A stretch of DNA of 64,000 nucleotides from Candidatus Campbellbacteria bacterium (GTDB lineage Bacteria; Patescibacteriota; Minisyncoccia; Phycocordibacterales; JAXHMZ01): NCBI GenBank assembly GCA_034521025.1, contig JAXHMZ010000001.1:15921-79920 (forward strand), written 5' to 3'. The notes beneath the pieces were generated by a model. It was not told where the DNA came from. It saw only the letters and a program-made list of their open reading frames with translations, and did no database searches. This document shows positions 2,223-15,656 of this stretch, one piece after another (positions within the stretch are counted from its first letter, which is position 1; each line of letters begins with the position of its first letter). The translations under genes were made by a program, and so were the position numbers.

Positions 2223-3833
2223 TCAGTTTTGAGAAGGGCGATGAAACGCATTGAATGTAACTTGACACTCATCTCGGCCATCTGACACGGTCACGGAGAA
2301 GGTTGCATCGAGCGGCAAGCGCTCTTCATACCACCTGGTCTCCTTCTGACCTGGATTACTTGCCTCGGGGCCAGTATTCCAACCGTCCGGAAAGTCGTAG
2401 TCGACGATTCGAACCCCATCCGCATACGTGTAGACAGTCAATGACATGTCTCCCGTATAATTGCGATGGGTATTAACGGTCATCTCCTGCTGGTTGTTGT
2501 CGGTACCAGTACCGCCAGCACCACAGGTCCGTTGCCGAAGAGGACTGTCTGCGCGAACATCGTCGGGGAAGTCGTATGAGTCCACACGACCTTCTCGTAC
2601 CATTTCGCGCAATTCGTCGATTTGATCCTGCTGATCATCAAGACGACGCGTGTTGTCGGCAATGTCACGTTCGTTATTGCCGATCCGACGCTCGTGGTCG
2701 TCAAGTTGATCTTGCTGCCCATCGTGACCTGCACGCAGATCATCAAGCATTGCGTTGAACTGATCGACGTTTGCATCGTCGCCTGCGGGACCTTGAGGTC
2801 CGCGAGGACCTTCGGGGCCACGGGGACCTTCAGGGCCGGGCGGGCCTACTTGACCAACTTCGCCAGGAAAGCCTCGAGGTCCTCGGGGACCTTGTGGGCC
2901 CTCACAGTCGTCACTCTGTTCACAGTATGCAACTACATCTTGGTAGACTTCCTGCTTGATTTCATCGACTCGATGTTCAAGCTCTGCATGGGCCATCCAC
3001 AACGAGCCAATCTCGTCTCTCCACTCATCCCAATCTTCAGGAAACTCTCGAAGAGCTTCTTCAATCTGCAGTTGGAAGTCTTGACGAAGCTCGAGATCCG
3101 CGCGAAGTGCTTCCGCGGTGGCCGCGTCAATGTCACGGCCGACACTGTCTTCCAGATCAGCAATCGCACCCTCAAGCCGTACTTCTGCATTTTCGACGGC
3201 GCGATTTGCCTGCCGTTCGATGAGATCCTTAAGCATATCAGGATCTCCTGCAAATGATTCGATGGCAAGCGGACATCCGGGTCTCGTATGGGTGCCACCA
3301 AGGTGTACAATCTCAAGCATGATCCCGAGCAACCGAGCGGCAACATTTTCTACTTCACCGCGCGTCGCATACTCGCCGGTCTCAAAGCTAAGCTCATTGT
3401 CGTTTTCTTGGTCAACACGTCCCGTCGTCACCCCGCATGCGTGATTAAGCGCCACCGAAGGACGTTGTTCATAGGGAACTTCTTCCCAATCAACATAGTC
3501 CCAATCAGCGGGATGATCCGGAACTTCGACCACCTGACCGAATTCGAGCGTATCGGTGTCGCTGGTACCGTATTGAACAGTTGCGATGTTATGCCACTGA
3601 TCTAGCCACTGTTCCCACGACTCATCATCGCGGACGTTACTTGTGTCCCACATGAACTCATAGACGAGCTCACGCAGGTCAGCGTCAGTATCGAAAGACT
3701 GTTCGCTGTCCACGTGCTCCTGGCTCTGCGCGCTGTGTCCGTTGGCAAAAGCCGGCATATAGCCGATAATCGCCAGAACGACAAACACGAGAGTCAGACG
3801 AATTGTCCAACGTACCTTAGTGTCGTAAGTCAT
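2223..3833 (-). CDS. Membrane-anchored collagen-like repeat protein (Gly-X-Y triple-helix segment plus coiled-coil and a C-terminal domain)
   Basis: [42 protein letters not shown]. Start chosen at the ATG at 3833, which follows AGGAGG (tcccacaaggaggaaaaATG), rather than the longer upstream ORF. One TM ([22 protein letters not shown]). Confidence 0.6.
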
Positions 3834-4007
3834 TTTTCCTCCTTGTGGGATTGAATGGAACTTATCTGGCTTCGTCGGACGAGATTTCATTTTTCTCTCC
3901 CCTCTCTTCCCTTTCAAAGATCTGGCGATACTATATCACGTAATAGAAAAATGTCAACCTTTGTAAAGAGCTGACATTTAACTTTTTGTAATACAACTTT
4001 TCTTTTA

Positions 4008-5679: not shown

Positions 5680-7515
5680 TTAGCGAGGTTCTACGTCAAT
5701 CACACAACGTGTTTCTTCTCCGTCGTCGACTCTAAGGTCAACAATGGCATCGGTGGTTTTTGTGCAATTATCGCCGGTAACTGAATCGACAACAAAGTCT
5801 TGGTTGTCGTCGAGCACCGCCCGATAATTGTTTTCTTCCACAAAAACCTTTTCACCGTCTTCGATGTCGCGAGAGATCAATTCTCCGCTTGATCGTTCGT
5901 AGACAGTAAAGGAAACGGCACGATCAATCTCAAAAACGTAATTACCTAAGCTGGAGCCACTCTCTCCCCCCACCAAGTCAAACCTGATGGTCTCAACATC
6001 CCTGTCGTCATCGCGTTCAACTTCCAGACGCACAACAACTTCACCGTCATCGTAGTCTGAGAACGAGATGTACTTGGAATGAGACTCGCGGGTGGATGAG
6101 TAGATCTCGAGATCGTCAACACGGATGGTCAGTTCGGCGTCATCCGCCGAAGAGACAGCTCCCCAATTGACCGAGAAGCCCTTGCCGTCGTCGACATCGA
6201 CATCGTCGTTGTCACGAACGTGACTTCCATCAGAGTCGGTCACGTTCAAGTAATCGATGAGGTTGGGATCAGAATCGTGATCCTCAAACTCAAAGTACAA
6301 GACGCAGTCAACGGTCTCTCCTTCATCCACATTAACGCGGATACGGAAGTCATTGACCTTGGTGCAGTCTTGCCTGACCCTGTCGAGGTCGTAGCCAAGG
6401 TTGGAAGGAGCGTTAATGTAATAACGACCTTCATTTACCCTAGCTCGATCACCGTCACGGTAGGTATCAACGTACGCGCCATCTGAGGCTTCTAGCTCTA
6501 GCGGAAAATCTTCCGGTTCGAGGTCGCCTCCGGTCACGCGAACGTCAAAATCGATCCGACCGGATCCATTTGAAGGATCACTTCCCCCCACCAAGTCAAA
6601 CCTGATGGTCTCAACATCCCTGTCGTCATCGCGTTCAACTTCCAGACGCACAACAACTTCACCGTCATCGTAGTCTGAGAACGAGATGTACTTGGAATGA
6701 GACTCGCGGGTGGACGAGTAGATCCTGTGACCGTCAACACGGATGGTCAGTTCGGCGTCATCCGCCGAAGAGACAGCTCCCCAATTGACCGAGAAGCCCT
6801 TGCCGTCGTCGACATCGACATCGTCGTTGTCACGAACGTGACTTCCATCAGAGTCGGTCACGTTCAAGTAATCGATGAGGTTGGGGTCATTGTTCCCGGT
6901 ATCATTGTCCTCATCATCGTTATGGTCGTCGTTGTCGTCTCCGCCGTGGTCACTGTTTCCATCGTCGCCGTCGTCATCGCCACTGTCATCGTTACCGCCG
7001 TCGGTATCCTTATCGCTGTCGTTATCGCCATTATCGTCGTCTTGACTTCCAACGTTAACAACGATCTCAATCGGCGAGCCGGATCTGTTGTTGCCTGACT
7101 TGTCGCTCAGGTAGAGCACAAAATGGTACTCTCCCGACCTTTGCGGCGTCCAATTGAACGTTTCTACGGACTCTTGGTCTCCGAAGTTGTGCGTATGCAC
7201 AACCGGGAGATCGCTCACATCCGTATCGGTCGTATTCCACTCACCAAGCTCAACCCGATAAGTACCGCGAACGTATCCATAGACAATGGTAAGTTCTTCA
7301 CCGATGTCCACGTCAGCCCTAGAGCGAGCATCAGCCCAGCTCCAGGTACGGTCTTGGTTGTCCTGATAAGTAGAATTATCAACTGCGACTAGGAAGGCTT
7401 GGGGGGTTACAGCGTTTTCACCGCTGTTGCCGTCTTTTGGTTGCTGATTCAGTTGAGTACAAGCCCCAAGAAACAGCAATACAAACGGCACCAATAGCAA
7501 ACCGATCTTTTTCAT
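5680..7515 (-). CDS. Highly acidic secreted lipoprotein with an internal tandem duplication and a poly-D/N/G low-complexity tract
   Basis: Lipobox LLFLGAC. DDDNGDNDSDKDTDGGNDDSGDDDGDDGNSDHGGDDNDDHNDDEDNDTGNND tract. Two near-identical segments of about 110 aa (DPNLIDYLNVTDSDGSHVRDNDDVDVDDGKGFSVNWGAVSSADDAELTIRVD...RFDLVGG). Confidence 0.5.
   Translation of the reverse strand: MKKIGLLLVPFVLLFLGACTQLNQQPKDGNSGENAVTPQAFLVAVDNSTYQDNQDRTWSWADARSRADVDIGEELTIVYGYVRGTYRVELGEWNTTDTDVSDLPVVHTHNFGDQESVETFNWTPQRSGEYHFVLYLSDKSGNNRSGSPIEIVVNVGSQDDDNGDNDSDKDTDGGNDDSGDDDGDDGNSDHGGDDNDDHNDDEDNDTGNNDPNLIDYLNVTDSDGSHVRDNDDVDVDDGKGFSVNWGAVSSADDAELTIRVDGHRIYSSTRESHSKYISFSDYDDGEVVVRLEVERDDDRDVETIRFDLVGGSDPSNGSGRIDFDVRVTGGDLEPEDFPLELEASDGAYVDTYRDGDRARVNEGRYYINAPSNLGYDLDRVRQDCTKVNDFRIRVNVDEGETVDCVLYFEFEDHDSDPNLIDYLNVTDSDGSHVRDNDDVDVDDGKGFSVNWGAVSSADDAELTIRVDDLEIYSSTRESHSKYISFSDYDDGEVVVRLEVERDDDRDVETIRFDLVGGESGSSLGNYVFEIDRAVSFTVYERSSGELISRDIEDGEKVFVEENNYRAVLDDNQDFVVDSVTGDNCTKTTDAIVDLRVDDGEETRCVIDVEPR
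5966..6888. repeat. Intragenic direct repeat: two copies of about 300 bp, >95% identical, offset exactly 600 bp (about 5966-6268 and 6585-6888)
   Basis: gagactcgcgggtgga[tc]gagtagatc... occurs at 6101 and 6701, and the long flanking sequence is identical. Confidence 0.8.
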
Positions 7516-9216: not shown

Positions 9217-10485
9217 CTATATATTAAAATTGGAGATCGAATATAGCTCGTCGTCGTTATCATCTTCCTTTTTATCTTCGGAATCACTTTCTTGTGTTAG
9301 ATCCGGTTCTTCTTCTGTACTTTCGCTTTCCTCCTCGCCATGACTAACTTCTGCTCCGTAGGTCGGGATATCCGCGGCAGGGGCTGTGTCTTCCCTTTTT
9401 TCCTCTCGTGTATTCAAGTAAGAACTCCAATCGTATTGGGGTGTTTTATTCGCTTCTTCTTCGGAACCGCTTTCCGTTTGTTTCACTTCCTCGTCAGATT
9501 CATTGCTTTTCTCAAACGACTGTGGTTCAGAGTATATGTTTTCTTCACGCGACTCTTCGGTTCCAGTTTCTTCTGGCTCTTCTTTAGTTTCGGGTTGTGA
9601 CGCTTGTTGAGAATTAATAAAGCGGCTTAGCATATCGTACTTTTCAGCGGAATTTTGCGCCGAAGAAGATAGTAAAGTGATTATATTTTTTACATCCTCG
9701 GGAGAGAAAAAGTCTATCATTATTTTGCCACCGTTTTCGCGAGATTCAATTTGCACTCGCGTACCGAGCGATTCTGAAAGTTTACCTTCTAGCTCTACAA
9801 GCTCTGGGTCTACTCTGCGATCCTTTTTGCGCACTTTATCGTGCGCTATTCTGCGAGCTATTGATTCAGTTTCGCGAACACTGAGATTTTTGTACACAAC
9901 CTCTTTAAAGACGGTGGCTAATTCATCTGGCTTGTCACTAAGCATCATTAGTGTACGGGCGTGCCCTTCCGATATTTTGCTACCGGCAACCGCCTCTCTG
10001 ATCTCTTCAGGCAAGGTCAATAATCTGAGAGTGTTTGATACGTACTCACGCGACTTTCCAACTTTCTTTCCAACCTCACTGTGCTTGAGTTTAAACTCTT
10101 CTACTAATCGGTTGAAAGCTACTGCTCGATCGATCGGGTTAAGATCTTCTCGTTGAATATTTTCTATGATCGCCAGCTCAAGCTTGAGAAGAGAATCTTC
10201 TTCGCCGCTTTTGATTATCACCGGCACTTGGCCCAGGTTCGCCATTCTAGCTGCGCGCAAACGTCTTTCACCGGCGATAAGTTCATACTCGGTAGATATG
10301 CCCCCATCAGACTTCTCTACTTCGCTTCGCGTTACCACGAGCGGCTGCAAAACACCATACTGTCGCACCGATTCAGATAGGCTCTGCAGCTTTTCCTCAT
10401 CAAATTCCTTTCTGGGTTGATGTGGATTGGTTTTTATTTTTCCGACTTCGATCCAAAAAATTGAGTTCCCTTGAAAATATGACAT
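9217..10485 (-). CDS. parB: ParB-like chromosome partition protein with a long acidic/Ser-rich C-terminal tail
   Basis: GERRLRAARMANL ParB box and an HTH region. Roughly 130-aa E/D/S-rich tail. Confidence 0.75.
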   Translation of the reverse strand: MSYFQGNSIFWIEVGKIKTNPHQPRKEFDEEKLQSLSESVRQYGVLQPLVVTRSEVEKSDGGISTEYELIAGERRLRAARMANLGQVPVIIKSGEEDSLLKLELAIIENIQREDLNPIDRAVAFNRLVEEFKLKHSEVGKKVGKSREYVSNTLRLLTLPEEIREAVAGSKISEGHARTLMMLSDKPDELATVFKEVVYKNLSVRETESIARRIAHDKVRKKDRRVDPELVELEGKLSESLGTRVQIESRENGGKIMIDFFSPEDVKNIITLLSSSAQNSAEKYDMLSRFINSQQASQPETKEEPEETGTEESREENIYSEPQSFEKSNESDEEVKQTESGSEEEANKTPQYDWSSYLNTREEKREDTAPAADIPTYGAEVSHGEEESESTEEEPDLTQESDSEDKKEDDNDDELYSISNFNI

Positions 10486-10914: not shown

Positions 10915-10997
10915 GCCGGAGTGGCGGAATTGGTAGACGCGCACGACTCAAAATCGTGTTCCTTCGGGAGTGGGAGTTCGATTCTCCCCTCCGGCAC
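10915..10997 (+). tRNA. tRNA-Leu(CAA), type II, no encoded CCA
   Basis: Hand fold: acceptor GCCGGAG/CTCCGGC, anticodon stem CACGA/TCGTG, loop CTCAAAA, long variable arm, T-loop TTCGATT. Confidence 0.8.
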
Positions 10998-11400
10998 TAC
11001 GAACAGAGTGAGTTGAGGCGGAGAGCGGGCAAACTGCTTTGCCCGTGTGAGAGAAGCGAAAGACGGAGTATATTGCGAGCGAAGCGGAGCAATTCGAGTC
11101 GGGGTCGCGAGGCTGCCGAAGGCAGAACTTGTGACCGATTCTCCCCTCCGGCACTACGAACAGAGTGAGTTGAGGCGGAGAGCGGGCAAACTGCTTTGCC
11201 CGTGTGAGAGAAGCGAAAGACGGAGTATATTGCGAGCGAAGCGGAGCAATTCGAGTCGGGGTCGCGAGGCTGCCGAAGGCAGAACTTGTGACCGATTCTC
11301 CCCTCCGGCACCAGAGCAAAGTGAGTTGAGGCGGAGAGCGGGCAAACTGCTTTGCCCGTGTGAGAGAAGCGAAAGACGGTGAGTTGAACCGGAATTGGGC
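10998..11400 (+). repeat. tRNA-3'-end-associated modular repeat array, about 2.7 units, period 150 bp; each unit ends in ...GACCGATTCTCCCCTCCGGCAC (tRNA-Leu 3' mimic)
   Basis: Unit cgattctcccctccggcactACGAACAGAGTGAGttgaggcggagagcgggcaaactgctttgcccgtgtgagagaagcgaaagacgg... is repeated at 10977, 11127 and 11277. Confidence 0.85.
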
Positions 11401-11442
11401 GCAAATAAATGCTTCAATCTATAGATTGAAGCATTTATTTGC
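11401..11442. repeat. Perfect 42-nt palindrome containing the core aaatgcttcaatctatagattgaagcattt (a second copy of the core is at 40381-40414)
   Basis: gcaaataaatgcttcaatcta|tagattgaagcatttatttgc. The 30-nt core is identical at both sites. Confidence 0.85.
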
Positions 11443-11474
11443 TACTATTTCTCGTATAAACATGCATTTAATTT

Positions 11475-12362
11475 ATGAAAGATAAGATTTTGGCTATCGT
11501 TGGACCTACGGCCGTAGGGAAAAGTAACTTGGCAGTGAACCTGGCTCTTGAATTTAATGGCGAAGTAATTTCCGCCGATTCTCGTCAGATCTACAAAGGA
11601 CTAGACATTGGAACCGGGAAGATAACCGAGGGAGAGAAAAAGGAAGTGACCCATTATATGATCGATATAGCCGACCCCAGAGAGCAATACACTGTAGCAG
11701 AGTGGAAAAATAACACCGAAAAGATCATATCCGAAGTTCTATCCAAGGACAGACTGCCGATCATTTGCGGAGGCACTGGTCAGTATATAGAAGCTATAGT
11801 AGATAATATTTCATATCCAAACGTCCCTCCTAACTACGAACTGCGAGATAAACTTCAAGATAAAAGTCCGGAAAAGCTTTTTGCAATACTAATGTCCAAA
11901 GACGAAGATCGCGCGAATACGATAGATAGAAATAACCCACGCCGAATTATACGCGCCATTGAAATAGCAGAATCTATTGGAAAAGTGCCGCCACTCGAAA
12001 GTGATCCTAAATACAATGCTCTTCAGATCGGTCTGTACCTGCCACGCGAGAAGCTGAAAAACCGTATAAAAAATAGATTGGAATCGCGCCTAGAGATAGG
12101 AATGGTCGAAGAAGCCAAAAAAATTCACAGCAATGGCATATCGTACAAACGAATGGATGAACTGGGATTAGAGTATCGCTACTTGGCAAAATACCTGCAA
12201 AACGAAATGACATACGAAGAAATGAAGGAGAAGCTAGAAACAGAAATATACCAATATTCAGTACGTCAACTACGTTGGTTCCGGCGCGATAATAGAATCA
12301 AGTGGTTCACTCCGGAAGAAAACGATCAAATCCAAGAGGAGGTGCGCAAATTTTTAACGTAA
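11475..12362 (+). CDS. miaA: tRNA dimethylallyltransferase
   Basis: P-loop GPTAVGKS. Overall MiaA-like (DSRQIYKGLDIGTGKIT). Confidence 0.85.
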   Translation: MKDKILAIVGPTAVGKSNLAVNLALEFNGEVISADSRQIYKGLDIGTGKITEGEKKEVTHYMIDIADPREQYTVAEWKNNTEKIISEVLSKDRLPIICGGTGQYIEAIVDNISYPNVPPNYELRDKLQDKSPEKLFAILMSKDEDRANTIDRNNPRRIIRAIEIAESIGKVPPLESDPKYNALQIGLYLPREKLKNRIKNRLESRLEIGMVEEAKKIHSNGISYKRMDELGLEYRYLAKYLQNEMTYEEMKEKLETEIYQYSVRQLRWFRRDNRIKWFTPEENDQIQEEVRKFLT

Positions 12363-12393
12363 AAAGCCCCGCGGTATATATACCGCGGGGCTA
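12363..12393. terminator. Bidirectional terminator between convergent genes
   Basis: aaaagccccgcggtatatataccgcggggct. Confidence 0.55.
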
Positions 12394-12435
12394 GAGGTTT
12401 CATCACCTCCTTATCAAAAAACTAAAGGAAGACGG

Positions 12436-14328
12436 TTAGTCACACAGTGTCCAGCCGTGTAAGTAGTCGAGTTTCCTATTGCCGTATCGCACCTCACCAT
12501 CAAAGTGATGGATAATGGTGTGTCCGACAAACAGGTCTGCCTGCCAACCGTGGTTATTGCCCTGTTGTTCAGACACATCACACGGTGGGTACCCGATGAT
12601 CGTCATCTCAGCCGGACCATTTTCGTCCGCTGGAGCAATCTCTCCGGTCCAGGAGGTTGAAGGCTCCTGATGATCGAGAGCACCAGACTGATCGTGCTTG
12701 TAGTAGATCGCCCAACCGAAGTTGTAGCAATCTTCTTCTGATGTGTTGGTGACAGTGAACTCAAGACTGCCATCGGGAAGCTCGGTGATAGTACCGGTGA
12801 GACCGGTAGCATCATCAGCACTCGTGGGATCAACGCATACTAGCGTCTCACCGTCTTTGCCATCCTGGCCATCTTCTCCGTCTTCGCCATCCTGACCGTC
12901 TTCACCGTCGGCTCCGTCGCAAACGTACCAAGTACCTGTTACTTCGGAGTTGTCGAGGATGCCGTTGCGGTTGTTGTCAAGACCAACTTCAACCCTAACA
13001 CCACCGTTTTCACAGTTCTCTCCCGAAGAAACGCTTGTAGTGTCGACGAGAGTAGTGAATCCATCTTCGCCGTCCTCGCCATCTTCTCCGTCTTCCGGGT
13101 AACCAATGAAAACTGTTTCGGTGACTTCAGACTCTTCGAGCGTATCGTTGCGATTGGAGTCGAGGCCAAAGTAGAGAGTTACACCCTCTTCTCCGAACTC
13201 AACGTCAACAAGTACGTTGTAACCGTCTTCGCCATCTTCACCGTCTTCGCCGTCCTGACCGTCTTCGCCATCGCTGGGACGGCAGAAGCGCACACTTTGC
13301 TCGACTTCGCTTTCTTCAAGCTCGCCGTTGCGGTTGGTGTCGAGACCGGTCTCGAAGAGTACGCCACCGTTGCGACAGATGTCGCCAGGATGGATCTCTA
13401 CGACGTCGACTAGACTATTGTATCCGTCTTCGCCGTCCTGACCGTCCTCACCATCTTCGCCATCTTCACCGTCTTCGCCGTCCCGACCGTCTTCACCGTC
13501 GACTCCGTCGCAAACGTAAGTAACATCAGTTACTTCGCTTTCGTCCAGAACCGTATCACGGTCAGTATCCAGGCCAACGCTTACTCGCGTACCTCCATTC
13601 GGACATTCTTGTGATTCTTCGATGGGCGTGGTGTCAATTAAAGCTGTATGCCCATCTTCACCGTCTTCGCCATCGGCACCATCTTCACCGTCTTCACCGT
13701 CTTCGGGGAACGGAATAAAGATGGTTTCTGTTACCTCCGAATCATCGAGCTCGCCGTTGCGGTTAGTGTCGAGACCAAGCTCTACTGTAACGCCATCTGA
13801 TTCAAAAATGACGTTAAACAGAACGCTGAGTCCGTCTTCGCCGTCCTCACCGTCGGCACCATCTCGACCGTCTCTGCCATCTTCACCGTCCTCGCCGTCG
13901 ACACCATCTCTGCCGTCTTCGCCATCCTCACCGTCTTCGCCATCCTCACCGTCGCGAGGGATAACCAGAACGTCTACGACACAGTGCGCTTGACTGTTAA
14001 GGTAGTTATACGTTTCGTATGTAAACGTATACGTACCATCGGGCAGACAATCGCCAGTCCAGCTGGAAACGCCGACAGCTCTTGCCTGCTCTGCTACTGT
14101 CACACGCGTCCGTGTGGTTCCGGGTGTGAGCTCGTAGGTAAGCTGTGAGCCATGGTCTTCGACCGGCTCAATTACGTTTCCGGATTCATCCAGAAGCGCA
14201 AGCTCGATCCCAGTGGCGCCGTCCGGCGCAGAATACTCTACTTCAAGAGTATTAACAGGCATCGGACGACTACAAGCCGCCAGCAGTAACGCTAGAAAGA
14301 CCGCTGAAAGTATGTAAAGCTTTTTCAC
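12436..14328 (-). CDS. Acidic surface lipoprotein with (Gly-Glu/Arg-Asp)n collagen-like triplet runs alternating with EF-hand-type Ca-binding loops
   Basis: Start set to GTG at 14328 after AGGGGAGG (MKKLYILSAVFLALLLAACS lipobox). Triplet run GEDGEDGEDGEDGRDGVDGEDGEDGRDGRDGADGEDGEDG. Five or more loops of the form DTNRNGELDDSE (D-x-N-x-N-G-x-L-D-x-x-E). Confidence 0.55.
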   Translation of the reverse strand: MKKLYILSAVFLALLLAACSRPMPVNTLEVEYSAPDGATGIELALLDESGNVIEPVEDHGSQLTYELTPGTTRTRVTVAEQARAVGVSSWTGDCLPDGTYTFTYETYNYLNSQAHCVVDVLVIPRDGEDGEDGEDGEDGRDGVDGEDGEDGRDGRDGADGEDGEDGLSVLFNVIFESDGVTVELGLDTNRNGELDDSEVTETIFIPFPEDGEDGEDGADGEDGEDGHTALIDTTPIEESQECPNGGTRVSVGLDTDRDTVLDESEVTDVTYVCDGVDGEDGRDGEDGEDGEDGEDGQDGEDGYNSLVDVVEIHPGDICRNGGVLFETGLDTNRNGELEESEVEQSVRFCRPSDGEDGQDGEDGEDGEDGYNVLVDVEFGEEGVTLYFGLDSNRNDTLEESEVTETVFIGYPEDGEDGEDGEDGFTTLVDTTSVSSGENCENGGVRVEVGLDNNRNGILDNSEVTGTWYVCDGADGEDGQDGEDGEDGQDGKDGETLVCVDPTSADDATGLTGTITELPDGSLEFTVTNTSEEDCYNFGWAIYYKHDQSGALDHQEPSTSWTGEIAPADENGPAEMTIIGYPPCDVSEQQGNNHGWQADLFVGHTIIHHFDGEVRYGNRKLDYLHGWTLCD

Positions 14329-14341
14329 TGGCCTCCCCTTT

Positions 14342-15529
14342 CTAGAAGTGGACATTTACACCAACGCCCAATTCGAGATCCGTCTCCCTGGGATCGGTGA
14401 TCGTATCGAATTGATTACTCAAACCGATCTCAGTAAAGGGACGGAAAACTTCGGTCGCTTCAAACTCCAAGCCGGCAAACATCACTCCCGCAAAACCGTT
14501 GCGAGGCTCGTCAAACGAGCCTTCCTGCGCACCGAACTGGTAGAACAATCCGCCACCTGCGTAGGGGTTGGCACTACCTGCCACATAGGGCCAGAACAGC
14601 ACATCAACTCCGACGCCAAACATCATGGCTTCTACTCCGCCGGCTCTGTTCAGAGACAAGTGACCGCGCACGCCAAGCCCTTCTTCGCTCGACGAAAGCA
14701 AGCCAGTATCTCCAACGTGAAGGTTTAGCGCAAGTGGAGAAATTCCGCCAACGGAAGCACCAACGTATGTGGTAGACGGACGATCAGGGGTGGTATACAC
14801 CACCTCCGTTACGCCATCTTCACCCGCTGGTCCACGTGGGCCTTCTGGTCCTTGTTCTCCAGTTTCGCCTTGCGGACCGGCAGGTCCTTGTGAACCTGCT
14901 TCACCGCGAGGACCGGGCTCGCCTTGCGAACCTTCCAGACCTTGTTCTCCACGGGGACCAATGTCACCTTGCTCGCCCGGCAGACCCATAGGGCCAGCCA
15001 GACCTTGTTCTCCGTCTTCGCCTTGCGGGCCCTGTGGTCCGACTTCGCCGCGAGGACCTCGGATATTACCAAGCTCTCGCATCTCACCGTCCGTGTACGT
15101 AATCGAGAGGTTGCCCTCTTCATCGAGGTAAACACTCTCTATTCCGCGTCCGGGCTCCCCTTCGGGGCCTTGCGGACCGGCGGGGCCTTGTGGGCCTGCT
15201 TCACCGCTTTCTCCCTCAGGACCCCGAGGACCTTGCGGGCCTTCGGTTTGTGGCAAGCATTCTGATTCCAGAATGCGAGCAATGACGACAAACGCCTCGT
15301 TACGCGTCAGGCTATCCCGACCGCGAATTGTAAACGTACCTTCGTCGCCGACAATGACGTTGCACTCAACCGCTCGGTTAAGCGCTTCGCGCGCCCAATC
15401 GACCACCGATTCCATATCGGTGAATACTTCGGGTGCTGGATGTGCCGCCCCGATAGGCGGCTCCGAATCTTGTGCCTGCGCAATAGGGATAACGAAGAGT
15501 AGGAAAAGCGCAAAACAAAACTTTTTCAC
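14342..15529 (-). CDS. SLH-domain protein with collagen-like Gly-X-Y repeats and a C-terminal domain ending in F
   Basis: GTG start after AGGAGAAG. Signal peptide. SLH-like segment [85 protein letters not shown] and further GLxGxxGxxG runs. C-terminus ...GVGVNVHF. Confidence 0.55.
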
Positions 15530-15656
15530 CGTCTTCTCCTTTCAAGAAATTTCTAGTTATAGGGCGAATATTTGTATGACTATTTCCTCCTTTCTGTAAA
15601 GAGCTTCAAAACAAAAAATACTAACAATTTAGGGTTTTGTCAATTTATGATCTGCT

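Follow-up and report, generated by a model that had tools for sequence, protein, structure and literature searches.

A DUF7151-family lipoprotein of a Candidatus Campbellbacteria bacterium with calcium-type loop modules alternating with acidic Gly-X-Asp runs

Collagen-like proteins such as Scl1/Scl2 of Streptococcus, BclA of Bacillus, Lcl of Legionella and the collagen-like tail fibres of phages carry a Gly-X-Y stalk between an anchor and a globular domain. The characterised bacterial collagens contain about 19-31% Pro in position X and have a Thr-rich position Y (PMC8968730). Calcium-binding loops of the Dx[DN]xDG class bind Ca2+ in a near-identical manner in at least twelve unrelated frameworks, strand-loop-strand contexts included (PMC3123361). 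Here we describe a gene on the minus strand of a 64-kb stretch of DNA (the window; contig JAXHMZ010000001.1, positions 15,921 to 79,920 of the forward strand) from a Candidatus Campbellbacteria bacterium, the product of which combines Gly-X-Asp runs with loops of this type. All coordinates given below for this gene and its neighbours are positions of the window.

Judged by its sequence, the product is a lipoprotein with a short signal peptide and an additional member of the large, catalogued but uncharacterised DUF7151 family. We read it, with a probability of about 0.6, as a surface lipoprotein in which a Ca2+-stiffened stalk displays a distal binding domain. Compared with Scl1/Scl2, BclA and Lcl, its Gly-X-Y runs are short, contain neither Pro nor Thr and are broken up by Ca-loop modules; unlike the LPXTG-anchored Scl proteins, it would be anchored by an N-terminal lipid, and it has no recognisable trimerisation domain. 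Similarity to the NCBIfam Scl2/SclB models is weak, confined to the triplets and far below the cut-offs (73.4 versus 325 bits for NF038329 and 16.5 versus 400 bits for NF038330).

Module architecture and family membership

The open reading frame extends from 12436 to 14355 when read from an ATG (639 residues), or from 12436 to 14328 when read from a GTG (630 residues); residues are numbered here from the GTG. The ATG at 14355 lies in a 14-nucleotide overlap with the upstream gene, whose TAG stop codon occupies 14342-14344, whereas the GTG at 14328 is preceded, with a spacer of 3 nucleotides, by the Shine-Dalgarno-like sequence AAAGGGGAGG (14332-14341). The latter is the probable translation start, as had been proposed in a preliminary description of this DNA. 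The N-terminus read from the GTG, MKKLYILSAVFLALLLAAC, includes the lipobox, and the pattern L-[AS]-[GA]-C is found in this segment (FLALLLAA followed by Cys) from either start codon, so that the proposed lipoprotein signal peptide is upheld. The Cys in question (residue 19) is almost invariant in the homologue alignment (A2), and 77 of the 116 complete homologues possess a lipobox-like N-terminus. The features of the gene, all on the minus strand, are as follows.

14272-14328, minus: probable GTG start, signal peptide and lipobox (MKKLYILSAVFLALLLAA before the Cys), with residue 19 as the predicted lipidated Cys
13951-14271, minus: membrane-proximal N-terminal domain, 107 residues, 2 Cys, beta-rich
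13825-13950, minus: Gly-X-Asp run 1, 14 triplets (GEDGEDGEDGEDGRDGVDGEDGEDGRDGRDGADGEDGEDGLS)
13699-13824, minus: DUF7151 module 1, short Cys-less subtype, 33.8 bits alone against Pfam DUF7151, loop at 13735-13770
13645-13698, minus: Gly-X-Asp run 2, 6 triplets
13507-13644, minus: DUF7151 module 2, Cys pair, 58.2 bits, loop DTDRDTVLDESE at 13534-13569
13417-13506, minus: Gly-X-Asp run 3, 10 triplets
13270-13416, minus: DUF7151 module 3, Cys pair, 54.3 bits, loop at 13306-13341
13216-13269, minus: Gly-X-Asp run 4, 6 triplets
13090-13215, minus: DUF7151 module 4, short Cys-less subtype, 28.0 bits, loop at 13126-13161
13054-13089, minus: Gly-X-Asp run 5, 4 triplets
12916-13053, minus: DUF7151 module 5, Cys pair, 70.4 bits, loop at 12943-12978 (the module modelled alone with AlphaFold2)
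12844-12915, minus: Gly-X-Asp run 6, 8 triplets
12439-12843, minus: distal C-terminal domain, 135 residues, 4 Cys, presumed functional head
12436-12438, minus: stop codon

The six runs and five modules alternate to form a stalk of about 370 residues. The extreme negative charge noted earlier holds for the mature protein as a whole, in which 164 Asp and Glu residues face 24 Lys and Arg residues, giving a net charge of about -140.

The full-length protein matches Pfam DUF7151 (PF23657) in five stretches (197.7 bits, cut-off 27.2, E=2.1e-59). When scanned singly, each module still exceeds the cut-off (28.0-70.4 bits), with no other Pfam match; the architecture is thus already catalogued, though uncharacterised. 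The consensus of 818 modules, taken from the 120 best homologues and the query, is G-x-x-S-L-V-...-C-x-N-G-G-x-R-I-x-x-G-L-D-x-N-x-N-G-x-L-D-x-x-E-V-x-x-T-x-Y-V-C-N-G-x-D-G. The module comprises about 45 residues, predicted by AlphaFold2 to form a three-stranded antiparallel sheet with the loop between strands 2 and 3. The model of module 5, based on a 141-row alignment, reached a predicted local distance difference test (pLDDT) score of 90, with strands at 6-14, 24-32 and 44-51. In the full-length prediction, the beta-beta-loop-beta layout recurs in all five modules at a pLDDT of 75-92 (strands at 169-176, 179-186 and 199-206 in module 1); the overall score is 60, with low confidence for the N- and C-terminal domains. 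A Foldseek comparison of the module model with the PDB yielded no similar solved structure (best E=4.2), and our literature search found no paper that mentions DUF7151.

A pair of Cys residues is present in modules 2, 3 and 5, i.e., three of the five. Within the family the two residues covary (both occur in 721 modules, neither in 40 and only one in 24), which fits a disulfide. The Cys-less subtype represented by modules 1 and 4 is not peculiar to this protein: of 804 family modules, 55 have fewer than two Cys residues, and the subtype occurs in homologues such as P0024 and P0037.

The homology search returned 1,101 proteins at E<1e-5, several of which are named "DUF7151 family protein". Their named sources are Ekhidna, Myxococcota, Polyangiaceae, Persicimonas and Nitrospirae, and Bacteroidota are represented as well. 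Inspection of the 40 top homologues showed module/triplet alternation in almost every one. The alternation of loops and triplets is therefore a family trait kept by relatives in other phyla, and the repeat is not confined to this genome; such confinement was an outcome that the preliminary description had named as refuting its reading. The closest described proteins are those in which DUF7151 and Collagen matches occur together, in Ekhidna spp., Myxococcota, Persicimonas and Polyangiaceae metagenome-assembled genomes, with modules 45-60% identical to those described here. These DUF7151 proteins share with ours the Pro-free G-x-D/N alternation, the lipoprotein N-terminus and the coexistence of Cys-pair and Cys-less subtypes. 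They differ in composition and in host: Glu occupies 60% of the X positions here, as against a family median of 14% acidic residues, and the present host belongs to the Paceibacteria, whereas the named relatives come from Bacteroidota, Myxococcota and Nitrospirae. In the best full-length match, identity is only 40%, and the alignment covers 56% of the query and is limited to the stalk. No close orthologue was found in the metagenome contigs scanned, which contained only distant triplet or module matches, and exact-protein look-ups of the ATG and GTG variants gave no match.

One relative is encoded by a phage. The sole significant structural match of module 5 in BFVD (E=2.2e-4, template-modelling score 0.92, root-mean-square deviation 0.9 Å, 46% identity) is the "tail fiber protein" of Maribacter phage Colly_1 (QQO97262.1; UniProt A0A8E4XV94; MT732450.1, 6956-8929; L108, 3872-5845). 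Among 50,697 phage records, only the Maribacter phage group (Colly_1/Molly) carries a DUF7151/G-x-D protein. It shares with our protein the DUF7151/G-x-D alternation, Cys-less modules and a lipobox-like N-terminus (MVLTLVGCS); it differs in being phage-encoded and in having another, Cys-rich C-terminal domain, the overall stalk identity is about 32%, and its function is assigned by annotation. An OmpA-family gene follows the Colly_1 gene, and a gene for a matrixin-like metalloprotease lies nearby. Rather than forming a virion fibre, the Colly_1 protein may be a surface lipoprotein that the phage encodes.

The two terminal domains were searched separately. For the N-terminal domain, a word-indexed search of 5.8 billion proteins gave zero homologues, and comparison with 120 family members gave nothing significant except a weak match to P0065 (E=4e-4). 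For the C-terminal domain, an exhaustive HMMER search of 1.84 billion representatives gave one clear relative, P0121 (E=7.8e-12). This protein of 789 residues contains three nearly identical tandem copies of the domain, with Thr/Pro-rich linkers between them, an arrangement which suggests that the domain is an autonomous extracellular type not described before.

Calcium-type loops in a beta-strand setting

The preliminary description had counted at least five modules with an EF-hand-like loop, and exactly five 12-residue loops of the form D-x-N/D-x-N/D-G/D/T-x-L-D/E-x-x-E are present: DTNRNGELDDSE (13735-13770), DTDRDTVLDESE (13534-13569), DTNRNGELEESE (13306-13341), DSNRNDTLEESE (13126-13161) and DNNRNGILDNSE (12943-12978). 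Among the 818 modules the loop positions are strongly conserved, with D1 in 100%, N/D3 in 94%, N/D5 in 95%, G6 in 76%, L8 in 93%, D9 in 64% and E12 in 97%. An EF-hand loop pattern of the PROSITE PS00018 type matches four of the five loops, compared with 0.028 matches expected per composition-preserving shuffle, and 533 of the 809 family modules. Loop 2 alone fails the pattern because of the Thr in position 6.

The loops share with canonical EF-hand loops (calmodulin, EhCaBP1, SCaMC-1) the length of 12 residues, D1, D/N3, D/N5, G6, a hydrophobic residue in position 8, an acidic or polar residue in position 9 and Glu12. A one-turn helix, as in EF loops, is predicted at loop positions 10-12 in the AlphaFold2 model of module 5. 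When a profile of 141 modules was compared with all PDB sequences, the top matches were EF-hand proteins, with EhCaBP1 (8e-5) followed by SCaMC-1, CDPK and lanmodulin. These matches are confined to profile positions 31-45, i.e., to the loop, and a cellulosomal scaffoldin appeared only at E=1.

The similarity does not extend beyond the loop. Entering and exiting helices are lacking in the model, as are paired EF-hands; the loop instead bridges two strands of a module that is predicted to be extracellular and, where the Cys pair is present, disulfide-containing. The Pfam models EF-hand_1 and EF-hand_6 reach only about 10 bits, far short of their cut-offs of about 25. Of the earlier EF-hand reading, the loop thus stands and the domain falls. 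The protein could in principle be a genuine EF-hand calcium sensor, or a dockerin-like or TSP3-like repeat protein, as the fit of the loops to the EF pattern and the weak precomputed EF-hand Pfam matches of some homologues would allow. We regard this as very improbable, given the beta-strand flanks, the missing four-helix domain of paired EF-hands and the predicted extracellular, lipid-anchored location. The dockerin pattern (a hydrophobic residue in position 2, Asp in position 12 and a helix motif thereafter) was found in none of the five loops and none of the 809 family modules, and dockerin PF00404 gave no match to the modules even at E<=10. Similarly, the TSP3 pattern DxDxDGxxDxxDxC was absent from all 809 modules, and no PF02412 match appeared even at E<=10. 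Dockerin and TSP3, which the preliminary description had asked to be weighed against the EF-hand loop, do not displace it.

A different parallel is offered by the calcium blades of integrin/FG-GAP proteins (strand-loop-strand, Dx[DN]xDGxxD), where a Ca2+-type loop likewise lies in a beta-hairpin of extracellular adhesion proteins (PMC3123361). In the blades, however, the last ligand is in position 9, whereas here it would be Glu12, 97% conserved as in EF-hands. The blade pattern occurs in 117 of the 809 family modules but in none of the loops of our protein, in which there is no beta-propeller. On the sequence evidence the loops are of the canonical EF-hand type and the domain is not an EF-hand; in the module as modelled, a loop of the Ca2+-binding Dx[DN]xDG class occurs in a strand-loop-strand setting.

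The triplet runs and the collagen question

The six Gly-X-Y runs are uninterrupted and comprise 14, 6, 10, 6, 4 and 8 triplets, which corrects the range of 7-14 given earlier. Glu occupies X in 29 of 48 triplets (60%) and Asp occupies Y in 42 of 48 (88%); Lys and Arg together account for 5%. Pro is absent from every X and Y position, so that the earlier observation of nearly proline-free runs can be put more strongly. The net charge of the runs, -1.38 per triplet, is the most acidic among 113 relatives, the family median being -0.6. In the family generally, the runs are poor in Pro (median 1.5%), Y is Asp in 55% and Asn in 20%, and X is variable (mostly Ala, Gln, Thr and Ser).

Although the composition is peculiar for collagen, Pfam Collagen (PF01391) recognises the protein in five stretches (66.6 bits, cut-off 27.2, E=1.6e-18). 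Run 1 is the strongest part of this match and gives the only phmmer match of the protein among PDB sequences, to collagen alpha-3(IX) (E=5e-4). PHROG tail-fibre families are also matched, again through the triplet runs.

At the DNA level, the 28 GED triplets are encoded by eight different 9-mers, and self-identity at period 9 never exceeds 8 nucleotides. The modules are 60-74% identical in DNA, from which the duplications appear to be old, and the codon diversity inside the GED runs points to selection at the protein level. Tandem-repeat scores of the region reach only 70-87% matches. Recent expansion by slippage was rejected in view of the varied 9-mers and the lack of long identity at period 9.

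The question is whether the runs form a triple helix. One possibility is a true homotrimeric collagen-like fibre, its runs comparable to the triple helices of Scl1/2, BclA, Lcl and phage tail fibres, in which DUF7151 trimers would pack around the axis at the interruptions, and Ca2+ would neutralise the acidic helix and make assembly Ca-dependent. Such a fibre would account for the Gly at every third residue over 4-14 triplets in all six runs, maintained despite synonymous-codon divergence, for the Pfam Collagen and PHROG tail-fibre matches, and for the conservation of the G-x-D/N pattern across phyla. The product of the gene upstream in the putative operon is likewise collagen-like, and the Maribacter phage protein bears the annotation of a tail fibre, a class of proteins that is normally trimeric. 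The phage label is annotation only, though, for a protein that has a lipobox and whose gene adjoins an OmpA gene. Moreover, the features that stabilise collagen (Pro in X, Thr or hydroxyproline in Y, and pairs of opposite charge) are not found in these runs, which are devoid of both Pro and Lys/Arg-Asp pairs and whose net charge amounts to -1.38 per triplet. Runs of four triplets, the family median, are short for a stable collagen helix. The strong preference for Asp or Asn in Y has no rationale in classical collagen, each module is confidently predicted to fold by itself, as a monomer, and no trimerisation domain can be recognised. We consider the homotrimeric fibre a serious but doubtful possibility, and lean slightly towards monomeric or otherwise non-classical acidic spacers over a homotrimeric collagen helix. 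Literature searches that combined collagen-like proteins with Patescibacteria, or bacterial collagen-like proteins with EF-hands, found nothing relevant.

The acidity itself might be the function, with the protein acting as a high-capacity buffer of Ca2+ or other cations, or as a mineral-nucleating surface layer; the runs would then bind with low affinity, like calsequestrin and acidic biomineralisation proteins, and the loops would add a few sites of high affinity. The 164 acidic residues of the mature protein and the rank of its runs as the most acidic of 113 family members agree with such a role, as does the acidity of other secreted proteins of the window (pI 4.0-4.5), including the Asp-rich lipoprotein encoded at 5680-7515. 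Extreme acidity is, however, not a conserved feature, since Ala, Gln, Thr and Ser make up most of the X residues in the family, where the net charge has a median of -0.6 per triplet, and a buffer would not account for a Gly periodicity this strict or for the globular domain at the distal end. This role seems improbable to us.

Genomic setting and proposed role

The gene and its upstream neighbour appear to form a two-gene operon, because a promoter-like site (15615-15643, upstream of the neighbour), a gap of 13 nucleotides between the stop of the neighbour and the GTG, and a strong terminator bracket both genes. The elements concerned are:

14342-15529, minus: upstream gene for a secreted collagen-like protein, Pfam Collagen E=7.8e-19, Pro-rich GXY repeats
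12365-12392, minus: intrinsic-terminator-like hairpin directly past the stop codon, 12-bp stem with 9 G-C pairs, followed by TTTTT

For the C-terminal 156 residues of the upstream product no homologues were found. The same product has a weak SLH-like stretch (E=0.074) and a Gly/aromatic-rich C-terminal domain whose end, VNVHF, resembles the terminus of an outer-membrane beta-barrel, which is odd in Patescibacteria.

Two further surface-protein genes lie in the first 16 kb of the window. The gene at 5680-7515 (minus strand) encodes an acidic lipoprotein with the lipobox LFLGAC, a pI of 4.05, 25% Asp and Glu, and a low-complexity segment rich in Asp, Asn and Gly, in agreement with its earlier characterisation as similarly poly-acidic; neither Pfam nor PHROG gave a match to the product. 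Within the gene lies a direct repeat of 300 nucleotides (5965-6264 and 6583-6882), whose 98% identity indicates that a domain of about 100 residues was duplicated recently. The gene at 2223-3917 (minus strand), flanked by a GH26-like gene and a gene for a GT2 glycosyltransferase, encodes a third collagen-like protein (Pfam Collagen 6.5e-8), whose N-terminal segment is membrane-spanning and which has an acidic region resembling a coiled coil. The secreted proteins of the window are acidic (pI 4.0-4.5) and the cytoplasmic ones near-neutral in pI, for which reason a halophilic "acidic proteome" was rejected.

The GC content at third codon positions is 0.50-0.56 in the four surface-protein genes (2223-3917, 5680-7515, 12436-14328 and 14342-15529), compared with 0.39-0.47 in housekeeping genes. 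The four genes also differ from the housekeeping genes in their choice of Gly codons; the gene under study has a third-position value of 0.51 and uses GGC and GGT instead of GGA. These deviations are compatible with a horizontal origin, but a codon regime of their own might also explain them. The flanking genes are of the housekeeping type (miaA, relA/spoT, parB, dcd, clpB, infB, gyrA, ftsA and many tRNA genes), and prophage origin of the locus was rejected on these grounds. The window ClpB is 56-70% identical (maximum 70%) to GTDB species representatives, and its taxon-labelled matches are Patescibacteria, mostly Paceibacteria/Parcubacteria.

Two other observations concern the flanking region. 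Beside tRNA-Leu(CAA) (10915-10997) lies a tandem repeat of 157 nucleotides (10979-11379; 2.6 copies, 98% matches), each unit of which begins with the last 20 or so nucleotides of the tRNA (CGATTCTCCCCTCCGGCAC); the arrangement resembles a series of repeated att-like tRNA 3' ends, or else a small tandem element. The ParB encoded at 9217-10485 (minus strand) has an unusually long acidic, Ser/Glu-rich C-terminal tail that continues for about 150 residues past the dimerisation domain.

A repetitive sequence with a deviant third-position GC content, suggestive of foreign origin, and with PHROG tail-fibre matches could reflect low-complexity expansion devoid of meaning, an artefact of assembly or the remnant of a prophage tail fibre. 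This is scarcely credible here. An independent Logan assembly (L001), in which the MiaA neighbour led to a 1.9-kb contig, is 100% identical across window positions 11413-13338, and the region has no exact tandem DNA units. The modules have diverged to 60-74% DNA identity, yet each passes the Pfam threshold singly; no phage genes lie nearby, the neighbours being miaA, a tRNA gene, dcd and clpB, and the open reading frame is intact, with a signal peptide, a Shine-Dalgarno-like sequence and a terminator.

A bolder proposal is that the DUF7151/G-x-D proteins represent an unrecognised class of calcium-dependent bacterial collagens, in which the Pro-free, Asp-rich runs become triple-helical only once neutralised by Ca2+, and trimers of the EF-loop modules serve as Ca2+-locked registration nodes. 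The gene would have been acquired horizontally, as the deviant third-position GC content and the relatives in Bacteroidota, Myxococcota and a flavobacterial phage would suggest, and the fibre and its collagen-like operon partner would be used for host attachment. We consider this unlikely.

The reading that we prefer is the DUF7151-family surface lipoprotein with a Ca2+-stiffened stalk. Each loop, as its residue pattern implies, would bind one extracellular Ca2+ as a structural ion, and Ca2+ together with the disulfide would lock a module that is too small for much of a hydrophobic core. The very acidic Gly-Glu-Asp spacers would be screened by Ca2+ and other counter-ions, the stalk would thereby be extended and stiff, and the C-terminal domain would be kept off the membrane for partner binding. 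In an episymbiotic cell of the candidate phyla radiation (CPR), the partner is plausibly a ligand on the host cell or in the matrix.

Several points weigh against this reading. The role in attachment, as an adhesin, is plausible by analogy and from the CPR lifestyle only. The searches found no homologues of the N-terminal domain and a single clear relative of the C-terminal domain, so that neither is informative on the ligand. No conserved gene neighbourhood was found across the three homologue loci inspected, and the context points to no pathway. Loop 2 has Thr in position 6. As for the spacers, their composition, a like-charged polymer with 0% Pro, is unlike that of characterised bacterial collagens; AlphaFold2 confidence for the triplet runs is low (pLDDT about 37-68); and runs in the family are short, with a median of 4 triplets, the 14-triplet run described here being in the top 2% or so for length.

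DUF7151 is a large family, with 1,101 sequences at E<1e-5 in several phyla and one phage, for which a concrete and testable description is now available. Its module would add a new strand-loop-strand context for the EF loop, and in annotation the EF-hand-looking loops of such proteins should be labelled DUF7151 rather than EF-hand. The runs lead one to ask whether calcium could help a Gly-X-Y polymer with like charges and no proline to fold into a collagen helix. For CPR biology, where the host-contact machinery is largely unknown, the protein provides a candidate surface or attachment fibre.

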